NCBI GenBank assembly: GCA_945906935.1
Contig: CAMDSO010000001.1
Coordinates: 67,596 to 131,595 of the forward strand
DNA: 64,000 bases
Direction: 5' to 3'
Origin: Bordetella parapertussis
GTDB taxonomy: Bacteria > Pseudomonadota > Gammaproteobacteria > Burkholderiales > SG8-41
Position 1 is the first letter of the stretch. The number at the start of each line of letters is the position of its first letter. The notes under the pieces are model-generated. The model was not told where the DNA came from and did not search any database. It was given only the letters and a program-made list of their open reading frames with translations. The position numbers and the translations under genes are program-made. Of this stretch, positions 1 through 45,690 are shown piece by piece.

Positions 1-1195
<1,195 letters not shown>

Positions 1196-10134: not shown

Positions 10135-10202
10135 ACCGGCTTGCTCGCTAGAGTTTTGAACAAGCCACATTAGTAAAACCCATGCTGGATTTCCTCCGGT
10201 AG

Positions 10203-10214
10203 GGCGGTAGCATG
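10203..10214 (+). promoter_or_regulatory. ops (operon polarity suppressor)/JUMPStart-like element GGCGGTAGCATG
   Basis: It matches the enterobacterial ops consensus GGCGGTAGnnTG exactly. It is intergenic, on the coding strand, 34 nt upstream of the first gene of the O-polysaccharide operon. A partial repeat CCGGTAG sits immediately before it. The rfaH-like gene is adjacent. Confidence 0.7.
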
Positions 10215-10247
10215 TCAACGAAATGATTAACCATAGGAAAATCTAGG

Positions 10248-12977: not shown

Positions 12978-12993
12978 AAGATAGTGAACGTCA

Positions 12994-13821: not shown

Positions 13822-13822
13822 A

Positions 13823-17038: not shown

Positions 17039-17070
17039 TTCCGCGAATGACATTACGCTAACCAATCCGA

Positions 17071-30591: not shown

Positions 30592-31464
30592 TTGAATTCC
30601 GTACATCAGGGCGTCGCACGATACGTTGAAACCTGCCCGGTCGGCTGTGCCGCCGGGTTAACGAGCACCGCTGTCGTGCTGCCGGAAGGGCCGCTGCTCG
30701 CATGTGGCGCCTGCGGACAGTTGATCAGCCAGATTAGCGAAGCGGACTATCTGCAGTCGATGCAGGCGTTTAACGATGCCGGCTTCAACCTGCCCGACGA
30801 ACGTGCGGCGCAACGCCGGGCGCGTCACTCGGCACGGCGGCTGGCCCGCATCCGCGCGCTGCTCGGCGGACGTCTCGACCGCCGAGCGCGCATCATCGAT
30901 GTCGGTTGTTCACGCGGTGATTTTGTCGCTGCCGCTACCGGCGCCGGCTTTGAAGCCGAAGGCGTGGAGCCGGCGCCGCACATTGCCGCCGCCGCGCGCG
31001 CCGCTGGCCGTCGCGTGCATACGGGCCTGCTCGAAGAACAACATTTCGACGATGCACAGTTCGATGCGGTCAGCCTGTTCGAAGTGGTTGAACATTTGCG
31101 CGAGCCGTTGGCGCTGCTGCAGGAATGCAAACGCAATTTGCGGCCGGGCGGCATCATGCTGATCAGCACCGGCAATGCGGCCAGTTGGACTGCGCGCGTC
31201 ATGAAGGAACGCTGGGATTATTTCCAGACACGCAAGGACGCCGGACACATCAGCTTTTTTAACCCGCACTCGATTGGCCTCCTGGCCAAACGCGCCGGCT
31301 TCGAACTCGCCGCGGTCAGAACCAGCCGTGTGCGCTTCGCTGAAAAAAGCGATTTGCCCGCGCCCGTCTATGCAGCGGCCAAGCTGGCCGCCGAGGCACT
31401 GGCGTTACCGGCGCGGTTGTGTGGCCAGGGCCACGATATGCTGGCCTATCTGCGCAAGCGCTAA
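30592..31464 (+). CDS. Class I SAM-dependent methyltransferase with an N-terminal four-Cys segment
   Basis: It has CPVGC...CGAC, then IIDVGCSRGDF and FEVVEHLREP. The non-ATG (TTG) start is uncertain. Confidence 0.72.
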   Translation: MNSVHQGVARYVETCPVGCAAGLTSTAVVLPEGPLLACGACGQLISQISEADYLQSMQAFNDAGFNLPDERAAQRRARHSARRLARIRALLGGRLDRRARIIDVGCSRGDFVAAATGAGFEAEGVEPAPHIAAAARAAGRRVHTGLLEEQHFDDAQFDAVSLFEVVEHLREPLALLQECKRNLRPGGIMLISTGNAASWTARVMKERWDYFQTRKDAGHISFFNPHSIGLLAKRAGFELAAVRTSRVRFAEKSDLPAPVYAAAKLAAEALALPARLCGQGHDMLAYLRKR

Positions 31465-31509: not shown

Positions 31510-32400
31510 TCAGGCGGCCTTCTCCACCACATAGAGCACAGAATTGTCGGCAATACCGGCGCGGGCGAACACCGCCGAGCCAAAGTGCGCGCGGTCGAGT
31601 GCGCGCACCTGAAATCCGGCATCCGCGAGACGTGACACCAGATCACGCTTGCCATAAAGGCGCAGATGATCATCCTGCCCGTGATATTTCCAGCGTAAGG
31701 CCGGCGTATTCACCGCGGGATCTTCTTGTGTGTCATCAACCCCCTCGATCAGCGGCACCATGACGATGCCGCAACCGCCCGGTCGCAGTATGCGAAAGAG
31801 TTCGCGCATCGCGGCCCTGTCATCGGGCACATGTTCGAGTATGTGCGAACACATGAACAGATCAACCGAGTTGTCCGCATACAGCGGCATGTTCGAAATA
31901 TCAACCTGGTCATCGACGTTCGGGCGGAAATAATCTGCGGTCCGGTATTCAATATTCGGAAACGTCCGCAACAGGCGCGAGAGTGCCAGCGATGGCGCAA
32001 AGTCAATGAAGCGGTATTGGCGGCCGGCCGCGAGTGCCGCCAGGCGGCCGCGCAAAAAGAGTGCGTATAAACGCTCGCGGTCAGAAGCGTCACAGGCGGG
32101 GCATGAATACGCTGACAGATTCAGCGTTTCAAACCGCTCGATCGGATACACAAAACCCATTTCACGCAGCTTGCGCGGAAACGATTTGTAGATCGGATAA
32201 AAATGTTTGAGGCCGCCGCTGCAAACCGGGCACTCATACGCATTGCCGCCGTAGAACGGCGTTTTTAGCCAACGGACAAATGCCTTCTTGAAATCCTTGA
32301 CCTTGTAACCTTTGTAGCGTGCGAGCACTGGACGTCCTTGACAGGCGGATGATAACTGCGAGTATACCGCGTGCTTATTGCGCCACTGCGCAGGCGGCAC
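31510..32400 (-). CDS. Class I SAM-dependent methyltransferase with an N-terminal CxxC...CxxC zinc-ribbon-like segment
   Basis: It has ECPVCSG...SCPACDAS, then CSHILEHVPDD and LRPGGCGIVMVP. It is the last gene of the minus-strand operon. Confidence 0.75.
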   Translation of the reverse strand: MPPAQWRNKHAVYSQLSSACQGRPVLARYKGYKVKDFKKAFVRWLKTPFYGGNAYECPVCSGGLKHFYPIYKSFPRKLREMGFVYPIERFETLNLSAYSCPACDASDRERLYALFLRGRLAALAAGRQYRFIDFAPSLALSRLLRTFPNIEYRTADYFRPNVDDQVDISNMPLYADNSVDLFMCSHILEHVPDDRAAMRELFRILRPGGCGIVMVPLIEGVDDTQEDPAVNTPALRWKYHGQDDHLRLYGKRDLVSRLADAGFQVRALDRAHFGSAVFARAGIADNSVLYVVEKAA

Positions 32401-33778
32401 CGCGGCAGAGCAAATAGAGGCTATTGGCCGCCAGTTTATAGTGCTTGAAAGTGCGGCCCAGACGTGGATCTTCTTCGTATGCGATTACAAACCCGGACTC
32501 CCATTCCGTCGGAGCCCGTTTCAACGCCAGCGCAGGATATATAGAAGAGTCGATATAACCGGCGACGCTCATGCCGCTGGCGCTCACATCATTGACATAA
32601 AGCGGATGGCCTGCGGTTAACGTAATAATCTCACGTGCCGCCTGTGCATAGTTCTCACCACGGTAATCATGCTGGTAATACGGAAACAAAAACGCCAGAA
32701 ATATCACCTTGAAGGCCAGCATACCAACCAGCCAGCGTCGCACCTTGCCGATCACCGCTTCGCCTGAACGCCACAGGACCACCGCAGCCGCCAGCGCAAA
32801 CAGCGGATAAATCGGCAGCAGATAGCGTATACCGCTGGTCGGCGCCAACCAGTAAGGCAAATAGCACAACAGCGCCATCGCCAGGGCGACCGCCAGCACC
32901 GGCTCGGCGGTCAGGGCGATGCGACGACGCCATGCGTAAAATATCGCCAACGGCAGTACCGGCAACATCCGTAATATCGATTCCGCCGGGAAGCCGATCA
33001 ACTGGCGCAAATAAGCAGCCCCACTTTCCGGCATCAATTTGGCAACGACCTCAGCAAACATGCGCGGACCTTGGCCGCTGTTAGCAGGCACCCAATGCAA
33101 CCAAGCCAGCGGTGCCATTAAAGCGGCCACATGCATGGCAATCGAAAAACGGCCAAGCAGTAGGCGACGTCCGGAACTCGTAAATAACAGCACGAACACT
33201 GCGGAGACATAGAACACGTACGCGGTAAAAGCCTTGCTCATGAAGGCACAGGTCAACGCAAGGACAGCGGCCGCCAGTAACGCTGGTCGATCTTCTGCAC
33301 AGGCGATCCACAACGCGGCAATCGCAGCGAAAATAAACATCGCAAACAAGGGGTCCACATAGGCCAGCCAGCCGCGATACAGCGCCACATCAGCCATTGT
33401 CAGATAAACCAGCGCGGCAAACCACGCCAGACCACGGTCACGCAACAGGCGCAATACCAGCCAACCCAGTATCGCAGCCGTCGCCAACGTAGCGCCTATC
33501 GTGATGGCGCGTGCCACCGGCAACATGAATGGCCAGCCAACCAACGATGCGAAGGGGATGATGAGCCAGGTATAGAAGGGGTTATGCTGCAGATTCCCCC
33601 CATACATATGCTGCCGGACCCAGTCGCCGTTCTGCCACATCTCGAGCGCAGAAATCGGAAATATCGCTTCCTCGCCAACGTAATAAAACGCCAGGGCAGG
33701 CGCATAAGCCACTGCCGCGATGATCACGAGCCAGCGCAGGCGGGGCGTTAACAGCGGGTAAGCGTCAGAAGTATTCAC
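32375..33778 (-). CDS. GT-C fold polyprenyl-phosphate-sugar-dependent glycosyltransferase (ArnT/PMT_2-like)
   Basis: It is 467 aa and highly hydrophobic, with about 11-12 TM segments. The first periplasmic loop has an acidic motif (YYVGEEAIFP). It sits in an operon with an ArnC-like GT2 and a small 4-TM protein. Confidence 0.78.
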   Translation of the reverse strand: MNTSDAYPLLTPRLRWLVIIAAVAYAPALAFYYVGEEAIFPISALEMWQNGDWVRQHMYGGNLQHNPFYTWLIIPFASLVGWPFMLPVARAITIGATLATAAILGWLVLRLLRDRGLAWFAALVYLTMADVALYRGWLAYVDPLFAMFIFAAIAALWIACAEDRPALLAAAVLALTCAFMSKAFTAYVFYVSAVFVLLFTSSGRRLLLGRFSIAMHVAALMAPLAWLHWVPANSGQGPRMFAEVVAKLMPESGAAYLRQLIGFPAESILRMLPVLPLAIFYAWRRRIALTAEPVLAVALAMALLCYLPYWLAPTSGIRYLLPIYPLFALAAAVVLWRSGEAVIGKVRRWLVGMLAFKVIFLAFLFPYYQHDYRGENYAQAAREIITLTAGHPLYVNDVSASGMSVAGYIDSSIYPALALKRAPTEWESGFVIAYEEDPRLGRTFKHYKLAANSLYLLCRGAACAVAQ

Positions 33779-33811
33779 GTCAATGTCGGATTTGTGGAAA
33801 GCATGGTCACA

Positions 33812-35038
33812 TTAATCGGGCATATAAAGCCCGGCTGGAATTTTAGTGGTCGGTGCTGAGGCGAGCTGATATCCATCGTCCGCCCAGAAGCGCGCAAAAA
33901 TCCGCGCATAGCAAGCGGGCAACGCATGATGCTCATCGACAAACTCCGCCGCAATACAGCCGTAACGCTCCGATTGACCGGCGTCGAGAATAACAGCATT
34001 GGCCTTTTGCGCCCACGCCGCGAGGTCGCGCTTGGTTTGCATGAGCAATGGCGCGAGGCGGGGTGAAGCCAGAAAAGCCCGCTCCATGCCCGGCAACAAC
34101 GGCGGAAGAATCAACAGCAAGCGGCCGCCAGCTGCGCGCTGATCCTGCGCGAGCCGTGTTAAACGCTCAAGCAACTGCGGTTGCGGCACACCACCCGCCT
34201 TGATCAAATCAATAGCGTATTTTGAACTGGGCACCACCGCACTACCGATCAAAGTCTCGACCCGTTGCACAGGCACAGGCTCAAGATTGGCAAAGGTTGC
34301 GCTGCCATCGTAGCGAAAGCCCGTACAGGTACCGCGAAAAATAGTATCGAAGTCACGCGCCGGCGTGCCATCAGGGCAGCGATAAATCTCGCCGCCGGCG
34401 CCGAAGAACAGCGCCTGAAAGGCCGCGGCAGGCGCCGGGCCTCGGACAATCTGCACAAGGCTGGAAAATAAATTTTTGACGCGCGGCAGGGATAGCGCGT
34501 CCTGCAGTTGCTGCGTCAATCGTATCTCGCCGCCCACTTGGGGCGTATGAGCATCAGGAGCGGCAACCATGACCGTTCCCGCTAAGGCAGGCGGACGAAA
34601 CACGAAGCCGAGCGCCCAATCAAGCGGCAACAGCATCAGCTTCCATTGCCCGGGATAAGACCGCACCATGAACTCAGCCTCAGCGAGGGAGACGGGCAAT
34701 TCATTGCCGGTCTGCGAAAAATTGTAGATCGACACGCCCGGCGGAAAGATCTCCTGCGTAATGCCCATTGCGGTCGATGACCCAAACACGACGGTATTGA
34801 TCTCCGGCAACCGATCAAACAGCCGCGCTGATTTAAACGGGCGGTTGGCCGACAGCGGCGGCGCATAAGTGATGCCGCGCGTTTCCTGCTGCCAGCGGCT
34901 GGCTTCGAGCACCACCGCCACTCCGCCCAAGCTGCGTAAGCCGAACAGATAATTGAGCACAACCACCGGCAGCAGTATGGCCAGACAGGCGACGGCAAAA
35001 ATCATCACATAGCGGCGGTGTATGGGCTGTTGGTTCAT
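33812..35038 (-). CDS. DltD/AlgJ-like SGNH-type O-acyltransferase partner, N-terminally membrane anchored
   Basis: It has a single N-terminal TM helix, a block-I-like VVFGSSTAMG and a C-terminal DEHH (DxxH) motif. Its ATG overlaps the MBOAT stop in TGATG. Confidence 0.55.
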   Translation of the reverse strand: MNQQPIHRRYVMIFAVACLAILLPVVVLNYLFGLRSLGGVAVVLEASRWQQETRGITYAPPLSANRPFKSARLFDRLPEINTVVFGSSTAMGITQEIFPPGVSIYNFSQTGNELPVSLAEAEFMVRSYPGQWKLMLLPLDWALGFVFRPPALAGTVMVAAPDAHTPQVGGEIRLTQQLQDALSLPRVKNLFSSLVQIVRGPAPAAAFQALFFGAGGEIYRCPDGTPARDFDTIFRGTCTGFRYDGSATFANLEPVPVQRVETLIGSAVVPSSKYAIDLIKAGGVPQPQLLERLTRLAQDQRAAGGRLLLILPPLLPGMERAFLASPRLAPLLMQTKRDLAAWAQKANAVILDAGQSERYGCIAAEFVDEHHALPACYARIFARFWADDGYQLASAPTTKIPAGLYMPD

Positions 35039-36594
35039 CAGAACTGGAAATACAAAAATTCGGACTGCTGGTGCAGATTAAAAATCGCCAGTATCAGCAG
35101 TGCGGCGGCAATCAGCGCATAGATGGGACGCGGCGACCACTTGAGCCGGCCTTCGGTAGTATCGGCCGGCAACATCAACGCCGGCCGGCACGCTGACATA
35201 AACTGCTGCGTGTTGGGCGCAAACCAAACCACCAGCAGGAGCACCCAGATCCAGTTGATAAGCCCACCGGTGACGAGATCACGCGTCTCGCCAAACATCA
35301 CACCGTGTGCGGCCAGCCATGCCCCAAGGACGCCCCACTTCGGCAGCCAGAAATCGGGCAGCACCAGTCCGTTGGCGCCGGCCATCGCCTTGAGCATGAG
35401 CATCGCCGCGTCGAGATCAGGCGCGCGAAACACCACCCACGCCACCACCACCGCGACAAAAGTCAGCAGGATACTGCAGGCGCGGCCGACAACACTGGAT
35501 GCCTGCGGGACCTGCCCCAACCGCAGGCGCAACAACTGCCAACCATGATTAATGGCGAGATAAGCGCCGTGCAGCGCACCCCACAGCACAAAGGTCCAGC
35601 CGGCGCCATGCCACAAGCCACCGAGCACCATGGTGATCAGCAGATTCAGATAACGACGCGCCGGCCCCTTACGGTTACCGCCAAGGGGCACATAGAGGTA
35701 GTCGCGCAAAAAGCGCGACAGCGTCATGTGCCAGCGCCGCCAGAACTCGATGATATTGACCGCACGGTAGGGCGAATGAAAATTCAACGGCAGCGTCACG
35801 CCAAAAAGGCGTGAGAGGCCGATCGCCATATCCGAGTAGCCGGAGAAATCGAAATACAACTGAAAGGTATAAGCGAGTGCACCCGCCCAGGCTTCGAGTG
35901 CGCCCAGCGGAACCCCCGAGGCGGCGGCATCGAACACCGGCCGCGCATAGCCGCCCATCGGATCGGCCAGCATGATTTTCTTGAACAGGCCGATGGCAAA
36001 GATAGTGAGGCCGACTGCAGCGTTTTCGTAACTGAAGCGATAGGTCTCGGCACGCCGAAACTGCGGCATCATTTCCGCGTGATGCAACACCGGTCCGGCG
36101 ATCAGATGTGGAAAATAAGTGACGAACAAACCATAGTGTATGAAGTTGTATTCGCGCACCTTGCCGGCATATACATCGGCAAGAAACGCAATCTGGGTGA
36201 AGGTGAAAAATGAAATCCCCAGCGGCAGGATGATTTCACCTAGGGATAAGCCGCCACCGGTCAGGTGGTTGAAACTACCAAGAAAAAAATTCGCATACTT
36301 GAAGTACGCCAGCAGCAAGAGGTTGGCGCTGATCGCCGCGATCAGCCATCCTTTGGCACGCGCCTGTGCGTGCACAGCGACCGCTCGACCGATGCCAGCG
36401 CCAAAATAAAAATTGCAGACGATGGAAGCCACCAGCAGTCCGAGGTAGGCGGGGTTCCACCAGCCATAAAAGAACAGCGAGGCGGCGGTCAACCACGCCG
36501 CCGCCAGTTGCGTCGAGATCCGCGCCAGCAAAAAAAATCCTGCCAGTGTGAGCGGCAGAAAAACGAAGATGAAAGCGTTTGAATTAAACAGCAT
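35038..36594 (-). CDS. MBOAT family membrane O-acyltransferase (AlgI/DltB/PatA-like)
   Basis: It begins MLFNSNAFIFVFLP. Motifs include WRRWHMTLSRFLRDYLYVPLGGNR and LWHGAGWTFVLWGALHG, which carries the invariant His. Confidence 0.9.
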   Translation of the reverse strand: MLFNSNAFIFVFLPLTLAGFFLLARISTQLAAAWLTAASLFFYGWWNPAYLGLLVASIVCNFYFGAGIGRAVAVHAQARAKGWLIAAISANLLLLAYFKYANFFLGSFNHLTGGGLSLGEIILPLGISFFTFTQIAFLADVYAGKVREYNFIHYGLFVTYFPHLIAGPVLHHAEMMPQFRRAETYRFSYENAAVGLTIFAIGLFKKIMLADPMGGYARPVFDAAASGVPLGALEAWAGALAYTFQLYFDFSGYSDMAIGLSRLFGVTLPLNFHSPYRAVNIIEFWRRWHMTLSRFLRDYLYVPLGGNRKGPARRYLNLLITMVLGGLWHGAGWTFVLWGALHGAYLAINHGWQLLRLRLGQVPQASSVVGRACSILLTFVAVVVAWVVFRAPDLDAAMLMLKAMAGANGLVLPDFWLPKWGVLGAWLAAHGVMFGETRDLVTGGLINWIWVLLLVVWFAPNTQQFMSACRPALMLPADTTEGRLKWSPRPIYALIAAALLILAIFNLHQQSEFLYFQF

Positions 36595-36638
36595 GGCGGT
36601 GCGTCGGCGTCCTTCCGGCGGCGGAAGGCGCGTGCAGC

Positions 36639-37793
36639 TTAAGTGGCGCCGGTGCCACGCGCTGCGTAAAAGCCTTTGACCGTATCAATCACCGCGTCGA
36701 CTTCCGCATCCGTGATGCCGTAATACAGCGGCAACCGCAACAAGCGTGCGCTCAGATCATCGGTGACCGTGAAGCTGCCGCTGGCGCGGCCCCAGCGCAT
36801 GCCACCGGGGGATGAATGCAGTGGCACATAGTGCGAAACCGACAGCATGTCGCTTGCCTTGAGATGCGCCGCCAGCGCTATGCGCGTGTCCAGCGAGTCG
36901 GGCAGCACGTAGAAAATATGCGCATTGCCGACGCGATCCGGATAAGCCGCGCGCGGCAGTTCAAACACACCGCTCGCCGCCAGCGCCGACAGCCCGGCGT
37001 AATAGCGCGCCCAAAGTGCGCGTCGGCGCGCGATGACTTCGTCGCCATGCGCGAGCTGGCCTTCGAGGAAGGCGGCCACCAGTTCGCTCGGCAAAAACGA
37101 CGAGCCGATATCAACCCAGGTGTACTTATCGACCTCACCGCGCAAAAAGCGGCTGCGGTTGGTGCCTTTTTCACGAATGATTTCGGCGCGTTCGGTCAGG
37201 CGCTCATCGTTGATGAGCAAGGCGCCGCCCTCGCCGCTGATCAGATTCTTGGTCTCATGAAAGCTGATGCAGCCGAGGTGCCCGATGGTGCCGAGATTGC
37301 GTCCCTTGTAGGTCGCCAGCAGCGCCTGCGCCGCATCTTCGATCACCAACAAATGATGTTTGGCGGCGATCGCCATGATCGCATCCATATCGCAGCCGAC
37401 ACCGGCGTAATGCACCACAGCGATGGCCTTGGTGCGTGGCGTAATCGCCGCCTCGATCAAGCGCTCGTCGAGATTGACGTTGTCGGCACGCACGTCGACA
37501 AACACCGGCACCGCGCCGCGCAGCGCAAACGCGTTGGCTGTCGAGACAAAGGTGTAGGAAGGCATGATGACTTCGTCGCCCGGCGCCAGATCACACAGCA
37601 TGGCCGCCATTTCCAAGGCACCGGTGCAGGAGTGTGTAAGCAGCGCGCGCTTGCAGCCGAGGCGCTCTTCGAGCCATTGCTGGCAGCGTTTGGTGTAATA
37701 ACCATCGCCGGACAAATGGCCGCGCGCGAGCGCATCGGCGATATTGGCCAGTTCGGTGCCGACGGCAGTGGGTTTGTTAAAGGGTATTTTCAT
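36639..37793 (-). CDS. wecE: dTDP-4-amino-4,6-dideoxyhexose (4-keto-6-deoxyglucose) aminotransferase, WecE/RffA-like
   Basis: MKIPFNKPTAVGTEL, RCQQWLEERLG, EVIMPSYTFVSTANAF, SFHETKN (PLP Lys) and REKGTNRS are collinear with my recollection of E. coli WecE. An alternative GTG start lies at 37805. Confidence 0.9.
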   Translation of the reverse strand: MKIPFNKPTAVGTELANIADALARGHLSGDGYYTKRCQQWLEERLGCKRALLTHSCTGALEMAAMLCDLAPGDEVIMPSYTFVSTANAFALRGAVPVFVDVRADNVNLDERLIEAAITPRTKAIAVVHYAGVGCDMDAIMAIAAKHHLLVIEDAAQALLATYKGRNLGTIGHLGCISFHETKNLISGEGGALLINDERLTERAEIIREKGTNRSRFLRGEVDKYTWVDIGSSFLPSELVAAFLEGQLAHGDEVIARRRALWARYYAGLSALAASGVFELPRAAYPDRVGNAHIFYVLPDSLDTRIALAAHLKASDMLSVSHYVPLHSSPGGMRWGRASGSFTVTDDLSARLLRLPLYYGITDAEVDAVIDTVKGFYAARGTGAT

Positions 37794-37797
37794 GATT

Positions 37798-38670
37798 TCA
37801 TGCACTACGTTGGGCGATGAGCAGGCGGGAACCGCCGGCGGGGAAACGCATGCCGCAGCGGATCAGCATACGCTCGCAGGTCAAGACGGCGGCGAGCAGG
37901 CCGTTGGTGATAGCGCCGACCCGTAACTCGGCGAGCACGTCATAGTCTTTCACCGGCGCGGGGCGGGCGCGCCGCGACAACAGCATCAGCGGCAGCAACA
38001 GCGACACAAACGATGTGGACATCATGATTTCGAATCCGGCCCCGGTGATTTTTTCTGCAATTTCAGCGCCACCATAGCGCCGCACATGATGCGCGTGTTC
38101 GTCGTAACGGCTCCACAGAAAGCGGTGCTGCGGCACCGTCACGAGCAAGCCGCCGCCGGGCCGTAACGCCCGCAACGCCTGTGCCAGCACGCCGCGGTCG
38201 TCTTCAATGTGTTCCAGCACGTCGAACATACCGATGATATCAAAGTGGGCGCTGAACGGGATGGCGCGCGCATCCATTTGCAGCAAGGTCGCCTGCGGTA
38301 CACGGCTGGCGGCAAACGGCAGGCCGCGGCTGGAAATTTCGCTCGCGTGCAAACGTAAATCGGGGCGTCCGGCGGCGACCCCGGCGAGCACATAACCGGT
38401 ACCACAGCCTATTTCAAGATAATCGCGGGCTGCGGGGAAATAGCGCTGCAGCGCCCACAACAACAAGGCATTGCGCGCCCGAAACCAGTAATTGCCAGAT
38501 TCGAGCTGGAACAACTCTTCGAAATAGCGGTCGTCGTAGCCGTCGTTATCCACCGCCAGCGGCGGCGCAAAGGCGGGAAAGCCGTCGATCAACGCGGGCG
38601 CATGGCCGCAGGCCTCACAATGCCAGTTCTCCGCGCGTATTTCCGCCGCACAGCGCAGGCATAGCCTCAA
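37798..38670 (-). CDS. Class I SAM-dependent methyltransferase with an N-terminal zinc ribbon
   Basis: It has CLRCAAEIRAENWHCEACGH, then YLEIGCGTGYV and MFDVLEHIEDD. Confidence 0.8.
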   Translation of the reverse strand: MRLCLRCAAEIRAENWHCEACGHAPALIDGFPAFAPPLAVDNDGYDDRYFEELFQLESGNYWFRARNALLLWALQRYFPAARDYLEIGCGTGYVLAGVAAGRPDLRLHASEISSRGLPFAASRVPQATLLQMDARAIPFSAHFDIIGMFDVLEHIEDDRGVLAQALRALRPGGGLLVTVPQHRFLWSRYDEHAHHVRRYGGAEIAEKITGAGFEIMMSTSFVSLLLPLMLLSRRARPAPVKDYDVLAELRVGAITNGLLAAVLTCERMLIRCGMRFPAGGSRLLIAQRSA

Positions 38671-39029
38671 CCCTGACTCCCGACGATGATGCCCAGCACC
38701 ACCAGGGCGGCACCGGCGATCTTCAGCGGCGTAATCGCCTCATTAAAGAACACGCCGCTCAACACCATGACAAGCACGAAAGCCAGCGTGGTAAACGGAT
38801 ACGCATGCGACAGCGGCAGCTTGGTCATCGCCGCCATCCAGGTCACCGAGGCCAGCAGCGCAGCGGCGAGGCCGGAGAGTATCCACGGGTTGAGCATCAG
38901 ACGCGCCAGGAATTCGATTTTCTGCGCGGCTTCGTCAGGCAGCGCACCAGCGGCGAGCACCTGCCATTTAATAACAATCTGTCCGTAGACGGTCAGCAAC
39001 ACCGTGCACAACACATAAACATAGCTCAT
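38667..39029 (-). CDS. Small 4-TM EamA/SMR-like membrane protein (ArnE/ArnF-like candidate flippase subunit)
   Basis: It is 120 aa with four hydrophobic segments. It overlaps both neighbours by 4 nt. Confidence 0.65.
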   Translation of the reverse strand: MSYVYVLCTVLLTVYGQIVIKWQVLAAGALPDEAAQKIEFLARLMLNPWILSGLAAALLASVTWMAAMTKLPLSHAYPFTTLAFVLVMVLSGVFFNEAITPLKIAGAALVVLGIIVGSQG

Positions 39030-39700
39030 GGCACCACCCGATGATAAATATCGACCGGCTTGCGAAAACGGAAGCCCAGCGAAGAGTAGAGATTGATCAC
39101 CGCGATATTCACAAACGAAATCGAACTACGCACTTCCGTCTGCCCCGCGGCGAACAGGTGGCGGCAAACCGCGCTCCAAAAATACTTCGCCAGACCGCGG
39201 CCGCGGTGCGTCTCACCCATCGCATGCAACACCAGACTACCGCCATTATGCGCAATAAAACCCGCCACCGCGCCGCCATAGAACAAGCCGAAGACGCGGC
39301 CTTCGGCGTGCAATTGGCACAGCCAGTTTTCATAGCGACGGTCGGCGCGCGCGGCGGCTATATTGAAATCACGGTGAAAACGGCCGTGTAAAAAAGCGCT
39401 GCGGCAGATCGCCGCCAGCGGCTCAAGCGCGACCGTTTTGCTGAAAGTCACCTGCGGGTCGTCAAAGCAGGCGAGCTTGTCGGCGCTGCACCAGGGTTCG
39501 ATCAGCGTGTCGCAGTAGTAGAAGCCCGCCTCATGCAAGAACCGCTTATCGGCCAGCGGATCGACCTTGGCGGTGTAATGCCCGGGGCGCAGCAGTGCGG
39601 CGGCCACGGATTGTGGATCTGGATTGACGATCTCGTAACAATCGATGCCGAAGGCCGCGCCGTCCCACGGCACCGGCTTGATGGGCGCCGGCTCAGTCAT
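39026..39700 (-). CDS. wecD: GNAT acetyltransferase, WecD/RffC-like (dTDP-4-amino-4,6-dideoxyhexose N-acetyltransferase)
   Basis: Start chosen at MTEPAPIKP, giving 224 aa. The GNAT core reads HRGRGLAKYFW....NIAVINLYSSLGFRF. It is operonic with wecE. Confidence 0.68.
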   Translation of the reverse strand: MTEPAPIKPVPWDGAAFGIDCYEIVNPDPQSVAAALLRPGHYTAKVDPLADKRFLHEAGFYYCDTLIEPWCSADKLACFDDPQVTFSKTVALEPLAAICRSAFLHGRFHRDFNIAAARADRRYENWLCQLHAEGRVFGLFYGGAVAGFIAHNGGSLVLHAMGETHRGRGLAKYFWSAVCRHLFAAGQTEVRSSISFVNIAVINLYSSLGFRFRKPVDIYHRVVP

Positions 39701-40619
39701 CAAAAGTCGTATGGTTGATGACGTAGAGCGGGCGGCACTTGGTCTCGTCATAGGTCTTGCCGAGATAGATACCGAGGATGCCGAGTATCGCCACGATCAC
39801 CCCGCCCATGAAGTAAATCGACACGATCAGACTGCTCCAGCCGGTCACCGGCGAGCCGTGAAACAGCGCCAGGAAAAGTATATAGAGGCCGTATAAGAAC
39901 GCGCAGGTGGCAATGAAAAAACCAAGCCGCACAGCGATCCGCAGCGGCTTGTCGGAATACGCAATGATGGTTTCAGCACCCAGCCGCCACAGCTTGCCGA
40001 AGGTATAGCTCGAGTCGCCGGCAAAGCGCTCGTCATGCTGCACGTCTATGCTGGTAAACGGGAACCCCATCCAGTTGATGAGGCTGCCGAAAAACCGCGA
40101 GCGCTCGCGCATATTGCGGTAATTGTTGATGACCTTGCGCGACAGTATGCGGAAATTGCCGGCCTGCGGATCGTAGTTCATGTCGGCCAGCCAGCTAAAC
40201 ACGCTGTAGTAAAGCCATGAGGAAAAACGCTTGAGCAGCGGATCACTGCGCTTGCCGCGCCGCGCCACCACGATCTCGTGGCCTTCCTGCGCTTTCGCGT
40301 ACAAACGCGGAATCTCCTCGGGCCGGTCCTGCAGGTCGCAATCCATCACCACCACCCAGTCGCCATTGCAACGGTCGAGCCCGGCGGTAATGCCGTAATG
40401 CTGGCCGAAATTGCGGCTGAACTGTATGCCTTTGACCCGCGGATCACGTTGCGCCAGTTCGACGATCAGCGGCCACGAGCGATCACCACCGCAGTCTTCA
40501 ACCAGCATGATTTCGAAGTCGGCCGTCAGCGGCTCCAGTGCCGCCTTCAACCGACGATAGAGTTCCTCGAGGCAGGACTCGGCATGATAGACGGGAACGA
40601 CGACTGAAATATGGGCCAT
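39693..40619 (-). CDS. GT2 polyprenyl-phosphate glycosyltransferase (ArnC/GtrB/DPM1-like)
   Basis: Motifs include ISVVVPVYHAESCLEELYRRL, VEDCGGDRS, MDCDLQD and FRILSRKV. Two C-terminal TM helices are present, as in ArnC/GtrB. Confidence 0.88.
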   Translation of the reverse strand: MAHISVVVPVYHAESCLEELYRRLKAALEPLTADFEIMLVEDCGGDRSWPLIVELAQRDPRVKGIQFSRNFGQHYGITAGLDRCNGDWVVVMDCDLQDRPEEIPRLYAKAQEGHEIVVARRGKRSDPLLKRFSSWLYYSVFSWLADMNYDPQAGNFRILSRKVINNYRNMRERSRFFGSLINWMGFPFTSIDVQHDERFAGDSSYTFGKLWRLGAETIIAYSDKPLRIAVRLGFFIATCAFLYGLYILFLALFHGSPVTGWSSLIVSIYFMGGVIVAILGILGIYLGKTYDETKCRPLYVINHTTFDD

Positions 40620-40637
40620 GTCGATGACGCGATAATG

Positions 40638-42395
40638 CTACGCCTTGTCCTTTTCCTGCAGCTTGAACTGAATATTGTAGAGCCGCGCATAGATGCCACC
40701 CTGTGCCAGCAACGCGGCATGGTCGCCAGTCTCGGCAATCCGACCGCCATCGAGCACGACAATGCGTCCGGCTTTTTCAATGGTCGACAGGCGGTGTGCG
40801 ATGACGATGGTGGTGCGCCCCTGCATCAGCATGTCGAGTGCTGCCTGCACGTGGCGTTCTGATTCGGAATCGAGCGCCGAGGTCGCCTCGTCGAGTATCA
40901 GCACCGGCGCGTTTTTCAGCAGGGCGCGCGCAATCGCCAAACGTTGACGCTGCCCGCCGGAGAGCTTGACACCGTTCTCACCGACCGTGGTTTGCAAACC
41001 CTGCGGCATCTGGCGGATGAATTCCATCGCGTGCGCAGCCTCCGCCGCCGCCACGATCTCCGCTTCACCAGTGTCACGCATCACGCCATAGGCGATGTTG
41101 GCGGCGACGCTATCATTGAAGAGCACCACATCCTGGCTCACCAAGGCAATATTGGCGCGCAAACTCTCCAAGGTCAGTGTTTCCACGTCGACGCCGTCGA
41201 GCAATATGCGTCCGGCAGTCGGGCGGTAAAAATGCGGCACCAGATTAGCCAGTGTGGTCTTGCCGCTGCCAGAACTGCCGACCAGGGCTACCGTCTCGCC
41301 CGGATTGATGTTGAGCGAAATGCCGTCGAGCGCCAGACGCTCGGGCACGCCGTAATGAAAACTGACATTCTCGAAACGGATGTCGCCGCGGGCACGCGCA
41401 ATTGAGGTGACGCCAGGGTCTTTTTCTCCGGCTTGCTCGATCAACTTAAACACCGATTCAGCCGCGGCCAAACCACGCTGCAATGGCTCGGTAACGCCGG
41501 TAATACGCTTGAGCGGGGACGTCAGCATCAACATCGCCGTAATGAAGGACACGAATTCGCCCACCGTGGCGCGGTTGCCGCCGGCCTGACCGGTGGCGAA
41601 ATAAATGATGGCGGCGAGCGCAATACCGGCGAGCAACTGCACCAGCGGCACGCTGGCCGCCGCCGCCGCGGTCTGCTTCATCATCGATGCGCGCACGCTT
41701 TCGGTCTTCTCGGCAAAGCGCATCGCTTCGTAACGCTGCCCGCCGAACAGTTTGACCACCTTGTGACCTTCGATGGCCTCCTGCAGCACCTGCGTCACAT
41801 CCCCCATCGCCGCCTGTACGGAGCGGCTGGAGGTGCGCAGGCGGATACTCGCCATACGCACGACGCCGACAATCAGCGGCGCTATCACCAGCGCCAACAG
41901 GGTGAGCTTCCAGTTGAGCCACAACATCCACGCCAGCAATCCGATCAGCGCCACGGCATCGCGAAAAATCACTGTCAGCACGCTGGTCGCCGCCGCCGTC
42001 ACCTGGGTAACGTCAAAGGTCAGTTTGGAGATCAGGTTGCCGCTGGCCTGATCATCATAATGCGCGGCCGGCAGCGTCAGCAGTTTGTCGAACATGACGC
42101 GGCGCAAATCCATAACGAGGCGGTTGCCGACCCAGTTGATCGAATAAGTGCCCATATATTCGGCACCGCCGCGCACCACAATCAATGCGAGGATATAGAG
42201 CGGCATCCGGTGCACCAGCGTTTCATCGCGGTTAACAAAAGTGCCGTCGAGCAGTGGCTGCAGCAGCGCCGGCAAAGCCGGTTCGGTCAACGCAACAATC
42301 ACCATGCCGAGCAGGGCCATCGCAAAAACACGCCAATAGGGCATAACGTAGCGCAACAGGCGCACGTAGAGTTCAGAACTGGTCATATTTCGCAT
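40638..42395 (-). CDS. msbA: Lipid A-core flippase ABC transporter (permease-ATPase fusion)
   Basis: It has a six-TM N-terminal domain. Walker A is GSSGSGKTT, the signature is LSGGQRQR and Walker B is ILILDEATSALD. The start is either MRNMTSSELY (42395) or MTSSELY (42386). The longer ORF start at 42443 lies inside a terminator hairpin. Confidence 0.88.
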   Translation of the reverse strand: MRNMTSSELYVRLLRYVMPYWRVFAMALLGMVIVALTEPALPALLQPLLDGTFVNRDETLVHRMPLYILALIVVRGGAEYMGTYSINWVGNRLVMDLRRVMFDKLLTLPAAHYDDQASGNLISKLTFDVTQVTAAATSVLTVIFRDAVALIGLLAWMLWLNWKLTLLALVIAPLIVGVVRMASIRLRTSSRSVQAAMGDVTQVLQEAIEGHKVVKLFGGQRYEAMRFAEKTESVRASMMKQTAAAAASVPLVQLLAGIALAAIIYFATGQAGGNRATVGEFVSFITAMLMLTSPLKRITGVTEPLQRGLAAAESVFKLIEQAGEKDPGVTSIARARGDIRFENVSFHYGVPERLALDGISLNINPGETVALVGSSGSGKTTLANLVPHFYRPTAGRILLDGVDVETLTLESLRANIALVSQDVVLFNDSVAANIAYGVMRDTGEAEIVAAAEAAHAMEFIRQMPQGLQTTVGENGVKLSGGQRQRLAIARALLKNAPVLILDEATSALDSESERHVQAALDMLMQGRTTIVIAHRLSTIEKAGRIVVLDGGRIAETGDHAALLAQGGIYARLYNIQFKLQEKDKA

Positions 42396-42423: not shown

Positions 42424-42460
42424 AAAAGAAAACGCCGCCGCACTTGCGTGGGGCGGCGTT
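42424..42460 (-). terminator. Rho-independent terminator after the TonB-dependent receptor gene
   Basis: The minus strand reads AACGCCGCC-ccacgcaagtgc-GGCGGCGTT followed by TTCTTTT. That is a 9-bp GC stem plus a U-tract. Confidence 0.65.
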
Positions 42461-42477: not shown

Positions 42478-44343
42478 CTATTTTGTTTGGTAGGCCAGCC
42501 AAACAAAGAAGTTACTCCGCGGGGTGTTATAAAACTGTGCCAGCTCATATTGGCGGTCGAAAACGTTGTTCAGGCGCCCATTAATAGACCAGTCTTTTGA
42601 TACGGCATAGCCTGCCGTCAGGTTAACCAGGCCATAGCCATGCATCTTCGACGCCGCCGCCTCTGTCGTGGAGTCGTAGCGATAACCACTGCCGGCAACC
42701 TCGGCACCAATACTCCATGGACCAATACGTCGTTTGGCGACGAGGCTGCCGAATTGGTTGGCACGACGACGAAGCATTAGGTTATTAGCTTCGTTACGGG
42801 CTTCCTGGATGGTCGCTTTTACCTGTAACTGCCACTCCGCCCACTGGCCTGAATAAGAGAATTCATAGCCTTTGATTTTGGCGTTATCCAGATTAATGGT
42901 TGTTGAATCAAACGTAACCGGATCGGTATAGATCGTGATCAGATCGGCTATTTTGTTTTCAAACGCTGTCACGGCAAACGTCTGGTTAGAAAACTTCAGA
43001 TCCGCACCGATCTCTCGGCTACGTGAGCGCTCCGGACGCACATTGGGATTTTGTATCCATTGCAATCCGGGGTTAGTCGGAAAATACAAGTCGTTAAAAC
43101 TCGGCGCACGAAAAGCGGTGCCAGCGGATGCCCTGACTTTGATGACCGGAGCGAACTGGTAGCTATAACCAATCGCCCCGGTATTGTGCAGGCCATACTG
43201 GTTACTATCATCGCGGCGGCCATTAACCTGAAAACCGTTTTTGCCGATCGCCCCATGATAGCCACCAAATGCGCTGACTGTATCTCGGTTATTTTTGGTG
43301 TACTGGGTTGAGTCGCTCGCCACCCGTTGCGCGAGATAGTCCATCCCCGCCAGCAAAGTACCGCTTTCGAACTGAATATCGTTTTGCCAGGTGGCCTGAT
43401 GCTGGTCCGTCTGGAAGTAACTCGGAAATGCGCCGGTTGTCGCCAAAATATCCCGCGTGGTGCCCAGCCTAAACAAGCTGTTCCACTGTGTGGTGAGACG
43501 ATTTCGGCTGTAGCCGGAAAAAGCATTCAGCGTTTGTCGATTGACATCATCGGTGGTCGGTCCCAGGTCCAAGTGGGTCACCCCTTCACTCTGAAAAAGG
43601 GTTAACCCGACTTCATTTGCGCTATTGATGTGCTGAACAATACGCCCGGAGAAATTAGAGTTGCGGTAGGCCTCATTGCCGGCCTTATATTGATTGAATG
43701 GGATCTCGGGGCGCGTCGTATTGAACCCCCTGCTTTCGAGCGTGCCAATACTAAAATTGATTTCGGTATCCTCTACGCGACGTCCGAATGCATAGCTCGC
43801 CTCTCGCGTACCATAAGTCCCGGCGCCGATCTTCGCGGTTGTTCCAAGGCCGGATTTTGTAAAAATCTGAATCACCCCGCCTATCGCGCCCGAACCATAC
43901 AAGCCGCTGAGGGCTCCAGCTACAATTTCGATCCGCTCAATCTGGGCAAGCGGAATATTTTCAAATGCCACCGAACCGTCAGTGGCTGACCCCAGCCGCA
44001 AACCATCAACCAGCACGACGGTATGCCCCCCTTGTGTACCGCGAATCGACACCGCAACTGGCTGCCCCATACCCGAGCTGGTTACTGCCACGCCGCCTTG
44101 CATCTGAAGCAGTTCGGCCAGCGTTTGCTGACCACTACGTGCAATATCTTCGGCCGTGATCACCGTGACGTTCTGGTTGATCGTCGAGCGCTTTTCGGGG
44201 ATGCGGGTCGCCGTGACAACCACTTCGTCGACCATCGCGACCTGCAACGGTGATTGCGCCCATGCGCGCGAAAAAACAATACACATCCCGACAGCCGATA
44301 CCCCGGCCACCAGTCTCCTACGGACTACCTGGTTGAACAACAT
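42478..44343 (-). CDS. btuB: TonB-dependent outer membrane receptor, BtuB-like (cobalamin/corrinoid)
   Basis: Start chosen at MLFNQVVRRRLVAGVSAVGMCIVFSRAWA (signal peptide). The TonB box is DEVVVTATR and the plug reads IERIEIVAGALSGLYGSGAIGGVIQI. It ends in a C-terminal aromatic beta-strand. A cobalamin riboswitch lies upstream. Confidence 0.88.
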   Translation of the reverse strand: MLFNQVVRRRLVAGVSAVGMCIVFSRAWAQSPLQVAMVDEVVVTATRIPEKRSTINQNVTVITAEDIARSGQQTLAELLQMQGGVAVTSSGMGQPVAVSIRGTQGGHTVVLVDGLRLGSATDGSVAFENIPLAQIERIEIVAGALSGLYGSGAIGGVIQIFTKSGLGTTAKIGAGTYGTREASYAFGRRVEDTEINFSIGTLESRGFNTTRPEIPFNQYKAGNEAYRNSNFSGRIVQHINSANEVGLTLFQSEGVTHLDLGPTTDDVNRQTLNAFSGYSRNRLTTQWNSLFRLGTTRDILATTGAFPSYFQTDQHQATWQNDIQFESGTLLAGMDYLAQRVASDSTQYTKNNRDTVSAFGGYHGAIGKNGFQVNGRRDDSNQYGLHNTGAIGYSYQFAPVIKVRASAGTAFRAPSFNDLYFPTNPGLQWIQNPNVRPERSRSREIGADLKFSNQTFAVTAFENKIADLITIYTDPVTFDSTTINLDNAKIKGYEFSYSGQWAEWQLQVKATIQEARNEANNLMLRRRANQFGSLVAKRRIGPWSIGAEVAGSGYRYDSTTEAAASKMHGYGLVNLTAGYAVSKDWSINGRLNNVFDRQYELAQFYNTPRSNFFVWLAYQTK

Positions 44344-44489
44344 GACATTCCCTTTGATTAACGCACGCCCTCCGCGTACGGATTGATCGCACGAGAAAAT
44401 GCATAGGGAATTGATTCGGATCGCCACTGGCACCTGAACACCGCATCCCCGCAGCATTTCCTCACCTGTGGTTCGAGGCCGGTCTACGG

Positions 44490-44690
44490 GCTGGCGAGAT
44501 TTGACGCGCCGCCTTCCCGGGCTTTGCAGGCCCAGTGGCTATGTGGCGCGCCCACGCTCGATCACCGTTGCGGGGGCAGCACAAGAATAGGCGGCAAAAC
44601 CCGGATCAAGATCCGCATTTCACCCGCCGCACTTGTTTCCCGATTATCCCTTGCCGAGGAATTCGGCATGGGCACCTGGAACCTTGTCAC
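44490..44690 (-). promoter_or_regulatory. Cobalamin (B12) riboswitch
   Basis: The minus strand contains ...aggtgcc...GGGAtaatcGGGAAacaagtgcggcGGGTGAAAtgc...GCTGCCCCCGCAACGGTGA...AGCCACTGGGcctgcaaagCCCGGGAAGGC... These are the conserved blocks of RF00174-type elements. It lies in the 5' leader of the btuB-like gene. Confidence 0.85.
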
Positions 44691-44917
44691 CGCCCAACTG
44701 CATTGGGCAACGACCGCCGCAGTCTAACCGAAGCGGCTGCAACGCGGTTGCCGCATATCAAATGAATCGCCGGAAAAGCTGTCGGCCGAACGCACCAACA
44801 GCGTCGCAGATTTACGACACTGAGGCGAGTTTCCACCGCCTGGATCGGCACGAAGTGGTGGCTTACTCGGGTCGCGAGTTATAATATCAAAACACACTCA
44901 ATAGATTTCGTTACATA

Positions 44918-45508: not shown

Positions 45509-45690
45509 TAATCCCCTGCGGTGTTCGTCAGAGCCTTTAATTCTTTGAACCGATAATTTGCTAACTGGTTGCGGACCTCAGCGGTGCTGTTGTGAACTTC
45601 CCTCGCGGAAGAGCCTGATGCGCCCGGAAAGCGACCCCTTGAACCTTCGGTTCAGGAAGCGGGCTCAACGGCATCTGCGGGGGACCTCAT
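45509..45690 (+). ncRNA. ssrS: 6S RNA
   Basis: It occupies the conserved position 3' of zapA. The 5' arm atcccctgcggtgttcgtcagagcc can pair with the 3' arm ggctcaacggcatctgcgggggac. The segment cccttgaaccttcggttcaggaagc resembles the E. coli ccuugaaccaaggguucaaggg region. The ends are approximate. Confidence 0.8.

Follow-up and report, generated by a model that had tools for sequence, protein, structure and literature searches.

A putative Arn/Gtr-type undecaprenyl-phosphate relay for a 4-amino-4,6-dideoxyhexose, built on a modular five-gene cassette in environmental Betaproteobacteria

The stretch of DNA analysed here, 64,000 nucleotides in length (the window), carries on its minus strand, at 31510-42395, a block of ten genes headed by msbA. 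We consider it reasonably probable that this block encodes an undecaprenyl-phosphate (Und-P) relay of the Arn/Gtr type, which would deliver a dTDP-derived, N-acetylated 4-amino-4,6-dideoxyhexose to the core or the lipid A of lipopolysaccharide (LPS), the sugar probably being methylated and O-acetylated as well. An original prediction for this DNA had described the block as a ten-gene operon in which WecE/WecD chemistry is wired to a relay of the ArnC/ArnE-F/ArnT type. This wiring agrees with every computational test run, and the interpretation as a whole is partly supported. However, comparison of related loci suggests that the functional unit is a mobile five-gene donor cassette combined with an exchangeable transferase, rather than the ten-gene operon. 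In the window, the cassette is joined to a glycosyltransferase of the ArnT fold (the GT-C) and to an optional gene pair for an MBOAT acyltransferase and a 408-aa protein (p408), with msbA and a second methyltransferase gene (MT2) as lineage-specific additions.

The cassette comprises the genes for a family 2 glycosyltransferase (GT2), a GNAT N-acetyltransferase, a 120-aa membrane protein, a class I methyltransferase (MT1) and the aminotransferase WecE (Table 1). Gene identities and folds, the conservation and modularity of the cassette, and the presence or absence of pathway genes were read directly from the data; by Pfam, NCBIfam and structure models, the identities are broadly those predicted, and hydropathy profiles agree with the predicted membrane topologies of the proteins in the block. 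WecE scores above the equivalog cut-offs of NF008687 (581.8 bits, cut-off 375) and TIGR02379 (560 bits, cut-off 435), has the PF01041 DegT fold, and shares 58% identity with E. coli WecE over 377 aa (32% with ArnB by tblastn). Its product is most likely dTDP-4-amino-4-deoxyfucose (dTDP-Fuc4N), the alternative being the 4-amino-4-deoxyquinovose (Qui4N) epimer. The family profile of the GNAT aligns by hhalign with E. coli WecD (probability 89.9%, E 1.7e-6, 194 columns) over residues 1-211 of both 224-aa proteins. Weak matches to the WecD model NF008212 occur in 16 of 21 family members, the best at E 3.8e-7, well below equivalog level, and Pfam matches to GNAT families cover residues ~130-230 of the longer 241-aa open reading frame. 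These alignments suggest that the family is a remote full-length homologue of WecD, not a WecD equivalog.

The GT2 shows the features of polyprenyl-phosphate glycosyltransferases, namely a GT-A domain, a conserved DXD motif (DCDLQD), C-terminal transmembrane helices (hydrophobic peaks at 234-282 by hydropathy) and full-length homology, with 32% identity to E. coli ArnC over residues 4-303, the C-terminal transmembrane region included. It scores below the equivalog cut-off of the ArnC model NF007986 (184.8 bits, cut-off 529) and below that of the PgfS model (228 bits). Residues 40-46, in the nucleotide-binding region of GT-A enzymes, read VEDCGGD invariantly in this family, in contrast to IDDGSSD in ArnC, a difference that may or may not bear on the recognition of dTDP instead of UDP. 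By homology, the GT2 would load the sugar onto Und-P. The 120-aa protein passes the PF00892 EamA cut-off (31.6 bits, cut-off 28.2) and is therefore of the same superfamily type as ArnE and ArnF; it falls short of the ArnF (49.2 bits, cut-off 99) and ArnE (31.7 bits, cut-off 92) models, is encoded by a single gene rather than two, and has no match to PF04138 (GtrA) at E <= 0.01. This protein is the predicted flippase of the Und-P-linked sugar and probably acts as a homodimer. In MT1, all four cysteines of the zinc ribbon are conserved in 46-47 of 47 homologues. PDB and family searches returned generic class I methyltransferases only, and their many weak matches included sugar N,N-dimethyltransferases and O-methyltransferases. 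The substrate of MT1 would be the sugar, through O- or N-methylation.

The comparison set contained about 85 related loci, 80 of which were returned by a genome scan with the GT-C. All 80 scanned loci lie in metagenome-assembled genomes (MAGs), labelled mostly Burkholderiales, Nitrosomonadales, Gallionella or just Betaproteobacteria; the labels Streptomyces, Chitinophaga and Bordetella parapertussis were judged implausible and disregarded. The exact protein of the window was found on metagenome contigs only. Co-occurrence was counted in the 41 GT-C loci with enough flanking DNA. The GT2 is present in 40 of them, WecE in 38, the GNAT in 35, and the flippase and MT1 in 33 each, with overlaps of 4-8 nt between genes, and a WaaL-like ligase occurs in 25. 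MBOAT and p408 are found together in 31 loci and one without the other in a single locus; the pair is missing in ~9 loci, which marks it as an optional accessory. The msbA gene occurs in 24 loci and MT2 in two. The arrangement can hardly be due to chance, as the same genes stand together in dozens of independent MAGs at protein identities as low as 45-55%. It takes two forms: in the first, all genes are co-linear behind msbA, as in the window; in the second, seen in Gallionella-type loci, the GT2-GNAT-flippase segment is inverted and msbA is absent. MT1 is missing from seven Gallionella-type loci.

Between the GT2 and flippase genes lies a position that may be called the N-capping slot, and the flippase gene always follows directly 3' of the gene in this slot, with a 4-nt overlap. 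The slot is occupied by the GNAT in 37 of 42 loci and by a class I methyltransferase in three, and it is empty in two. In these three loci (L016, ~3890-4670; L025, ~2790-3549; L053, ~3350-4180), a methyltransferase of ~255 aa replaces the GNAT, and WecE and MT1 are retained, a hint that the sugar may here be N-methylated and thus basic; PDB and family searches with it returned generic class I methyltransferases only. In another locus, L092 (GCA_947085625.1), the slot holds an ArnA/Fmt-type formyltransferase at 4987-5868. This gene covers only the equivalent of residues 100-285 of Fmt/ArnA, with a stop codon in the upstream 250 bp, and its reading frame may be shifted or the assembly faulty. 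L092 also encodes, nearby, a TylC3-like sugar C-methyltransferase (PF08421/PF08484).

The search seeded with MT1 showed that GT2-GNAT-flippase-MT1-WecE forms a self-contained five-gene cassette, which recurs at 55-72% identity in three other contexts. In Polaromonas sp. (L088; GCA_029945485.1) it adjoins rmlC/A/D/B and an AT3-SGNH O-acetyltransferase; on a JGI contig (L090) it lies 3' of a 621-aa membrane protein; and in L092 a 682-aa protein with 13 transmembrane segments is encoded 3' of the aminotransferase. The polytopic proteins beside the three cassettes (693, 621 and 682 aa; Table 1) are unrelated to one another and to the GT-C of the window, and neither Pfam, BLASTP nor hhalign assigned them to a family, which makes them candidates for novel acceptor-specific transferases. 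The expectation that the ten-gene operon is the functional unit did not survive this comparison, as the core is the five-gene cassette, msbA is present in little more than half of the well-flanked loci, and MT2 is confined to close relatives. Nor does methylation look like the optional extra it had been taken for: MT1, beside the flippase, belongs to the core of the cassette and stays with the GT2, flippase and aminotransferase in all three of the other contexts.

The transferase joined to the cassette in the window resembles ArnT both in fold and in profile. The AlphaFold model of the GT-C (predicted local distance difference test, pLDDT, 83.4; predicted TM-score, pTM, 0.87) has its best PDB matches by Foldseek in Cupriavidus metallidurans ArnT (5ezm/5f15, E 4e-7, TM-score 0.68-0.70, full length), followed by ALG12, oligosaccharyltransferase (OST)/PglB and arabinosyltransferases; Pmt1-Pmt2 appears at rank 34, with E ~1 and 256 aligned columns. 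Furthermore, the family profile aligns with E. coli ArnT by hhalign (probability 96.8%, E 2.4e-10) over residues 35-200, which correspond to the catalytic N-terminal module, placing the invariant G35-E36-E37 of the family on P-D-E of ArnT, and ArnT residues 31-152 match the GT-C by tblastn (E 4e-7). The protein thus combines the GT-C fold, an acidic motif in the first periplasmic loop and ArnT homology, as in the ArnT/GT83 group. The GT-C of the window has no Pfam match of its own and its profile matches no PDB sequence; some homologues carry PF13231, PF03901 or PF02366. It belongs to a distinct family of moderate size, for which a set of 1.84 billion representatives yielded 193 clusters (50% identity, E <= 1e-30). 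On this structural likeness, it would move the sugar from Und-P to its acceptor in the periplasm.

The MBOAT protein scores 177.9 bits against the DltB model, below the cut-off of 375, and its gene overlaps that of p408 by 1 nt. Searches of Pfam, NCBIfam and PDB sequences, a PDB profile search included, returned nothing for p408. Its AlphaFold model has a pLDDT of 75.7 overall, with only 40-60 over residues 150-250, and Foldseek places DltD first (7dxm; E 1.7e-3, probability 0.98, TM-score only 0.34-0.37), followed by SGNH esterases and PatB. The invariant residues of p408 are Ser88 in a GSST motif, D368-x-H370-H371 and four cysteines, and hydropathy indicates one N-terminal transmembrane segment. 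It is plausible, though not proven, that p408 is the DltD/SGNH-like transferase or esterase half of an O-acylation pair, and MBOAT would be the membrane half of this optional two-component system for periplasmic O-acylation (O-acetylation). In Polaromonas, an AT3-SGNH enzyme takes the equivalent position, which supports the view that O-acetylation regularly accompanies the cassette. Homologues of MT2 were found in six close relatives only.

The window also holds genes that could supply the relay. The genes rmlB and rmlA are present, and tblastn with E. coli RfbC and RfbD found no rmlC or rmlD in the 64 kb; rmlB and rmlA without rmlC and rmlD are as expected for a dedicated supply of dTDP-4-keto-6-deoxyglucose to WecE. 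They are followed by an RfaH gene (8933-9457) and the gene for a MarR-type extracellular polysaccharide (EPS) regulator. Among components of enterobacterial common antigen (ECA) synthesis, WecF, WzxE, WzyE, WecG, WzzE and WecC gave no tblastn match in the window or in the 80 loci (within 10 kb of the GT-C). This agrees with the original prediction, which had recognised no WecF, WzxE or WzyE, and membership of an ECA locus was rejected on the lack of WecF, WzxE, WzyE, WecG and WzzE from the window and these loci. A complete Arn pathway was not found either: tblastn with ArnA matched only an unrelated short-chain dehydrogenase/reductase (SDR) at 18072-18638 in the window, where both the ArnA decarboxylase/formyltransferase and ArnD are absent, and the neighbourhoods of the GT-C in the 80 loci (10 kb) likewise gave no full ArnA. 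Deacetylases of the ArnD (PF01522) type and of the YdjC/NaxD/LgmC type, the absence of which had likewise been predicted, gave no match in single-sequence tblastn searches; these have limited sensitivity and covered the window and, for the 80 loci, the DNA within 10 kb of the GT-C. Because no deacetylase is linked, the residue probably stays neutral. Within 10 kb, no called gene encodes a protein with an AMP-binding (DltA) or PP-binding (DltC) Pfam domain.

From homology, gene order and what is known of the Arn, Gtr and ECA systems, the following pathway can be proposed. RmlA and RmlB would make dTDP-4-keto-6-deoxy-D-glucose, which WecE would aminate at C4, and the WecD-like GNAT would then N-acetylate the amine, an N-capping step that is the counterpart of formylation by ArnA. 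After MT1 has added a methyl group to the sugar, the ArnC-like GT2 would place it on Und-P and the ArnE/F-like protein would turn the Und-P-sugar to the periplasmic face. There, the ArnT-fold GT-C would pass the sugar to an envelope glycan already flipped by MsbA, and the MBOAT and DltD/SGNH-like pair, where present, would O-acylate the decorated glycan. The stereochemistry of the sugar, the site of its methylation, the O-acyl donor, the acceptor and the preference of the GT2 for a dTDP-sugar are all inferred parts of this scheme. ArnC of the Arn pathway takes the sugar only in its N-formylated form, and ArnD removes the formyl group later (PMC12690121). The exchange of GNAT for a formyltransferase in one and the same slot directly mirrors the Arn logic that had been predicted, and is the strongest comparative argument that the Arn rule of N-acylation holds here.

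Compared with Arn, the proposed pathway has the same succession of a 4-aminotransferase, N-acylation of the nucleotide sugar, a GT2 acting on Und-P, a small flippase of the drug/metabolite transporter (DMT)/EamA type and a periplasmic GT-C. In contrast to Arn, the precursor is dTDP-4-keto-6-deoxyglucose instead of a UDP-4-keto-pentose, and there is no UDP-glucuronic acid decarboxylase domain; a GNAT takes the place of the formyltransferase, ArnD is lacking, and one flippase gene stands for two. An additional methyltransferase and the MBOAT/SGNH pair are present here, and all Arn equivalog scores are below cut-off. The likeness to ECA synthesis lies in WecE, an equivalog by score, and in the 224-aa length and apparent two-domain layout that the GNAT shares with WecD. 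Unlike ECA loci, the window and the 80 loci have no WecA-G assembly line, and the GNAT is under every WecD threshold.

By analogy, the closest characterised precedent is wxcK-O of Xanthomonas (X. campestris/X. hortorum), which serve a side branch of 3-acetamido-3-deoxyfucose (Fuc3NAc). The wxc cluster's region 3 encodes the aminotransferase WxcK, the glycosyltransferase WxcL, the acetyltransferase/isomerase WxcM, the small membrane protein WxcN (annotated as a sugar transferase) and WxcO, annotated as a sugar translocase (PMC12573098). Mutation of wxcK or of wxcN removes the O-antigen branch that derives from dTDP-Fuc3NAc and leaves the main chain in place (PMC4878081). Both systems link an aminotransferase with an acetyltransferase, and the sugar predicted here would, like that of Xanthomonas, be a dTDP-derived, N-acetylated amino-6-deoxyhexose; in Xanthomonas a small membrane protein is needed for branching. 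The sugar there is of the 3-amino kind (FdtB-type, with an isomerase), in contrast to the 4-amino kind (WecE/WecD-type) predicted here, and the acceptor there is the variable O-antigen. No conserved methyltransferase or MBOAT pair has been reported for the wxc region, and the likeness was drawn from gene descriptions. WxcL is reportedly GtrB-like and WxcN GtrA-like, as Vorholter et al. 2001 are said to have described them. The original prediction knew of no characterised system with this gene combination. The exact combination indeed appeared in no paper found in the literature searched, which missed most subscription journals, but the claim of novelty was overstated in view of the wxc region 3 precedent.

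Three-component glucosylation of O-antigens is carried out by Gtr-type systems (GtrA, GtrB and a Gtr-type GT-C), to which gmlABC of Klebsiella and pentofuranose systems of Citrobacter are related (PMC11127046). As in the window, L088, L090 and L092, these systems combine a conserved donor module (a polyprenyl-phosphate GT2 and a small flippase) with exchangeable, unrelated transferases. However, the flippase here is of the EamA/ArnE-F type and not GtrA, three dedicated tailoring enzymes lie within the module, and the betaproteobacterial module is chromosomal and conserved, not phage-borne. Francisella FlmF2/FlmK/NaxD and Bordetella LgmA/B/C are relays of ArnC-like and ArnT-like enzymes that transfer an N-acetylated amino sugar (galactosamine or glucosamine) on Und-P to lipid A. 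They start from a UDP-N-acetylhexosamine and include a YdjC-family deacetylase, whereas the sugar predicted here is a 6-deoxy 4-amino hexose and no such gene was found. The accessory pair resembles PatA/PatB, AlgI/AlgJ-AlgX and DltB/DltD in that its MBOAT protein shows translational coupling with a partner that has an N-terminal anchor and is plausibly SGNH/DltD-like. It also resembles the fused AT3-SGNH enzymes of the OafA/OafB type, one of which occupies the equivalent position in Polaromonas. It differs from Dlt in the lack of DltA/DltC-type domains among called neighbours, and p408 falls outside existing family profiles.

What does the relay decorate? A conserved position on lipid A-core, with core and lipid A not distinguishable from one another, is marginally favoured as the inferred acceptor. 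Two observations argue for it: the GT-C is syntenic with a WaaL-like ligase and core glycosyltransferases (a heptosyltransferase III-like GT9 and GT2s) across MAGs labelled Burkholderiales, Nitrosomonadales and Gallionella, and the module lies in native DNA of ~60% G+C, outside an O-antigen island of 47-50% G+C. A more detailed version is rather doubtful. In it, an ArnT-like enzyme would put a neutral, fully capped sugar (N-acetyl, O-/N-methyl, O-acetyl) on a lipid A phosphate or the inner core, the previously unrecognised MBOAT and DltD-like pair would O-acylate LPS, and the charge of the residue would be set by whichever N-capping enzyme (for acetyl, formyl or methyl) the mobile donor cassette carries. 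If true, this would add a new class to the lipid A/core modifications, one common among the iron-oxidising and nitrifying Betaproteobacteria of the environment.

Several results weigh against a relay for an N-acetylated 4-amino sugar that ends on core or lipid A. The GNAT of the window has no match, even at E <= 1, to the WecD models NF008212 and TIGR02382, and searches of the PDB with its single sequence and with the family profile did not return WecD. The nucleotide-sugar specificity of the GT2 is not evident from its sequence, and its ArnC and PgfS scores are below cut-off. Two loci (L076 and L082) keep GT2-flippase-MT1-GT-C without the GNAT, and two (L074 and L076) lack WecE; the relay can probably carry other sugars. 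The DltD/SGNH assignment of p408 depends on weak structural matches (TM-score ~0.35), and a single transcript from msbA onward is suggested by gene spacing only. In addition, all close relatives come from uncultured MAGs.

The same relay might instead act on the O-polysaccharide or another polymer, linked to undecaprenyl diphosphate (Und-PP) or secreted, adding a side branch or a cap after export as in Gtr-type serotype conversion; this is a minority possibility that deserves weight. The O-antigen cluster of the window includes Wzm/Wzt and appears to be of the ABC-transporter type, and periplasmic three-component branching is documented in ABC-transporter O-antigen systems (PMC11127046; PMC4878081). 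The pairing of the cassette with unrelated polytopic membrane proteins elsewhere is a hallmark of acceptor-specific Gtr enzymes. In Polaromonas, the cassette has O-antigen-like surroundings, and its neighbour is an AT3-SGNH O-acetyltransferase, of a class that acts on O-antigens. This context, together with the Xanthomonas analogue and its ABC-pathway O-antigen, means that the acceptor could be the O-polysaccharide. Yet the neighbours of the GT-C remain constant at 45-55% identity, in contrast to the hypervariable structures and loci of O-antigens; the module lies apart from the low-G+C island; and the best structural match of the GT-C is the lipid A transferase ArnT.

If N-acetylation were transient and an unlinked deacetylase exposed the amine, the product would be a cationic 4-amino-4,6-dideoxyhexose on lipid A that lowers the binding of cationic peptides and metals. 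We regard this as unlikely. It would follow the Arn analogy, in which ArnC takes only an N-acylated donor and ArnD acts afterwards (PMC12690121), and would fit both the replacement of the GNAT by a formyltransferase in L092 and the three loci with a methyltransferase in its place, where a basic (methylated) amine would be left; against it stands the failure of the tblastn searches, of limited sensitivity as stated, to find an ArnD/YdjC/NaxD-type gene in the window or near the GT-C of the 80 loci.

It is slightly harder to accept that two unrelated pathways share the block, with the GT2, flippase and GT-C relaying a common UDP-sugar such as that of Glc or GlcNAc while WecE, the GNAT and MT1 feed a cytoplasmic glycosyltransferase of the adjacent core/O-antigen genes. 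The top scores of the GT2 are indeed to PgfS/GtrB-like models, L074 and L076 retain GT2-flippase-GT-C without WecE, and several cytoplasmic GT2/GT4 genes adjoin the block. However, the GNAT gene is embedded between those for the GT2 and the flippase (overlaps of 8 and 4 nt), with MT1 and WecE directly after; this interleaved order is kept in four genomic contexts, and the block travels without any cytoplasmic glycosyltransferase. That the GT-C is a protein mannosyltransferase (PMT)-like O-glycosyltransferase for periplasmic or outer-membrane proteins is very unlikely: some homologues are annotated as dolichyl-phosphate-mannose-protein mannosyltransferase/GT39 or carry PF02366/PF13231, but the rank of Pmt1-Pmt2 against the full-length ArnT match, the ArnT profile match, and the synteny with LPS core genes and msbA all speak against it, and on the Foldseek ranking a PMT-type identity, which the original prediction had named as fatal to its claim, was rejected.

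Returning to the Und-P relay for a 4-amino-4,6-dideoxyhexose on LPS core or lipid A, what appears new is the modular cassette of five genes, in which the N-capping enzyme can be swapped, together with MT1 as a core methyltransferase and the unannotated DltD-like partner of MBOAT; a neutral lipid A/core decoration in environmental Betaproteobacteria is a possible further novelty. If the relay is as proposed, dTDP-derived 4-amino-4,6-dideoxyhexoses would enter three-component glycosylation, where such a class of sugar has so far had genetic support only, through Fuc3NAc in Xanthomonas, and they would do so by way of a portable donor cassette whose amine-capping enzyme and acceptor-specific partner transferases can each be exchanged. 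The cassette would then help to annotate thousands of LPS genes that are now 'hypothetical' in environmental Betaproteobacteria and could serve glycoengineering, and two unannotated families, the DltD-like p408 and the ArnT-like GT-C, would receive a first function. No concept would be overturned: Arn and Gtr already follow this logic, and Xanthomonas has a close analogue.

Regarding the layout of the block, all ten minus-strand open reading frames are present. With the likeliest starts, the junctions comprise gaps of 18, 4, 44 and 33 nt and overlaps of 8, 4, 4, 1 and 26 nt, a range exactly as originally described (overlaps of 1-26 nt, gaps of at most 44 nt). MsbA scores 758.7 bits against the equivalog model TIGR02203 (cut-off 602) and has PF00664 ABC_membrane and PF00005 ABC_tran in a fused half-transporter. 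Between the btuB stop and the msbA start lies a terminator-like hairpin, which folds at -23.8 kcal/mol (z = -4.0 vs shuffles); msbA therefore heads its own unit, with a marked 5' boundary. The ATG at 42395, the end assigned to the block by the original prediction, is the correct start, and a longer open reading frame from a GTG at 42443 is an artefact because that start falls within the hairpin. A simple promoter and terminator scan found no msbA promoter and also missed the btuB terminator. When the 3' end of the unit was folded, hairpins were seen and no U tract was found. The hairpin also insulates the gene for the BtuB-like receptor from msbA.

Table 1. Features of the window, and polytopic membrane proteins beside the cassette in related loci.
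Feature	Location	Strand	Basis or remark
rmlB	6692-7747	+	TIGR01181, 477 bits, above cut-off
rmlA	8002-8868	+	TIGR01207, 489 bits, above cut-off
MT3, third class I methyltransferase	30592-31464	+	convergent with the unit
MT2, second class I methyltransferase, CxxC...CxxC	31510..32400	-	Methyltransf_23/11; start 32400 (GTG) or 32328
ArnT-fold GT-C, 467 aa, ~11 transmembrane segments and small C-terminal periplasmic domain	32375..33778	-	structure model and profile
p408, predicted N-terminally anchored periplasmic protein, 408 aa, DltD/SGNH-like	33812..35038	-	structure model
MBOAT membrane acyltransferase	35038..36594	-	PF03062, 111.6 bits, cut-off 27
WecE, pyridoxal-phosphate (PLP)-dependent dTDP-4-keto-6-deoxy-D-glucose 4-aminotransferase	36639..37793	-	NF008687, TIGR02379
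MT1, class I S-adenosylmethionine (SAM) methyltransferase, N-terminal CxxC...CxxC zinc ribbon	37798..38670	-	Methyltransf_23/11/12/25
EamA/DMT half-transporter, ArnE/ArnF-like, 120 aa, ~4 transmembrane segments	38667..39029	-	PF00892 and hydropathy
WecD-like, apparently two-domain GNAT N-acetyltransferase, 224 aa	39026..39700	-	ATG at 39700; fills the N-capping slot
Polyprenyl-phosphate GT2, ArnC/GtrB/DPMS type	39693..40619	-	PF00535
msbA, lipid A-core flippase (ABC exporter)	40638..42395	-	first gene; ATG 42395 or ATG 42386
Terminator-like hairpin and GUUUUCUUUU	42424..42460	-	9-bp G+C stem, one mismatch, GCAA loop
BtuB-like TonB-dependent receptor	42478-44457	-	upstream of the unit
Cobalamin riboswitch	44460-44694	-	97 bits; precedes the BtuB-like receptor gene
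Polytopic membrane protein, 693 aa	L088 1895-3976	-	beside cassette, no Pfam family
Polytopic membrane protein, 621 aa	L090 5124-6989	+	beside cassette, no Pfam family
Polytopic membrane protein, 682 aa	L092 8249-10297	+	beside cassette, no Pfam family

On the 3' side, the unit converges with a core/O-antigen region on the plus strand, which contains a methyltransferase gene (MT3), a heptosyltransferase III-like GT9, two GT2s, a WaaL-like Wzy_C protein, a WbpM-like dehydratase and a WecA-like transferase. MT3 is kept beside the heptosyltransferase III-like gene in ~30 related loci, and this conservation suggests that a component of the core is methylated independently of the cassette. The low-G+C island, at ~10200-21200 on the plus strand (0.47-0.50 vs ~0.60), is an O-antigen cluster with Wzm/Wzt, a TylF-like O-methyltransferase, other methyltransferases, GT2, GT4 and GT11 glycosyltransferases and an SDR; its low G+C content suggests horizontal acquisition. 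An ops-like GGCGGTAG lies 38 nt 5' of the first gene of the island. A further ops-like GGCGGTAG within the GNAT gene was set aside as chance, with four matches against 1.6 expected. Elsewhere in the window, a thiamine pyrophosphate (TPP) riboswitch (1109-1229, minus strand, 62 bits) and a 6S/SsrS RNA gene (45510-45687, plus strand, 84 bits) both score above their Rfam gathering scores.

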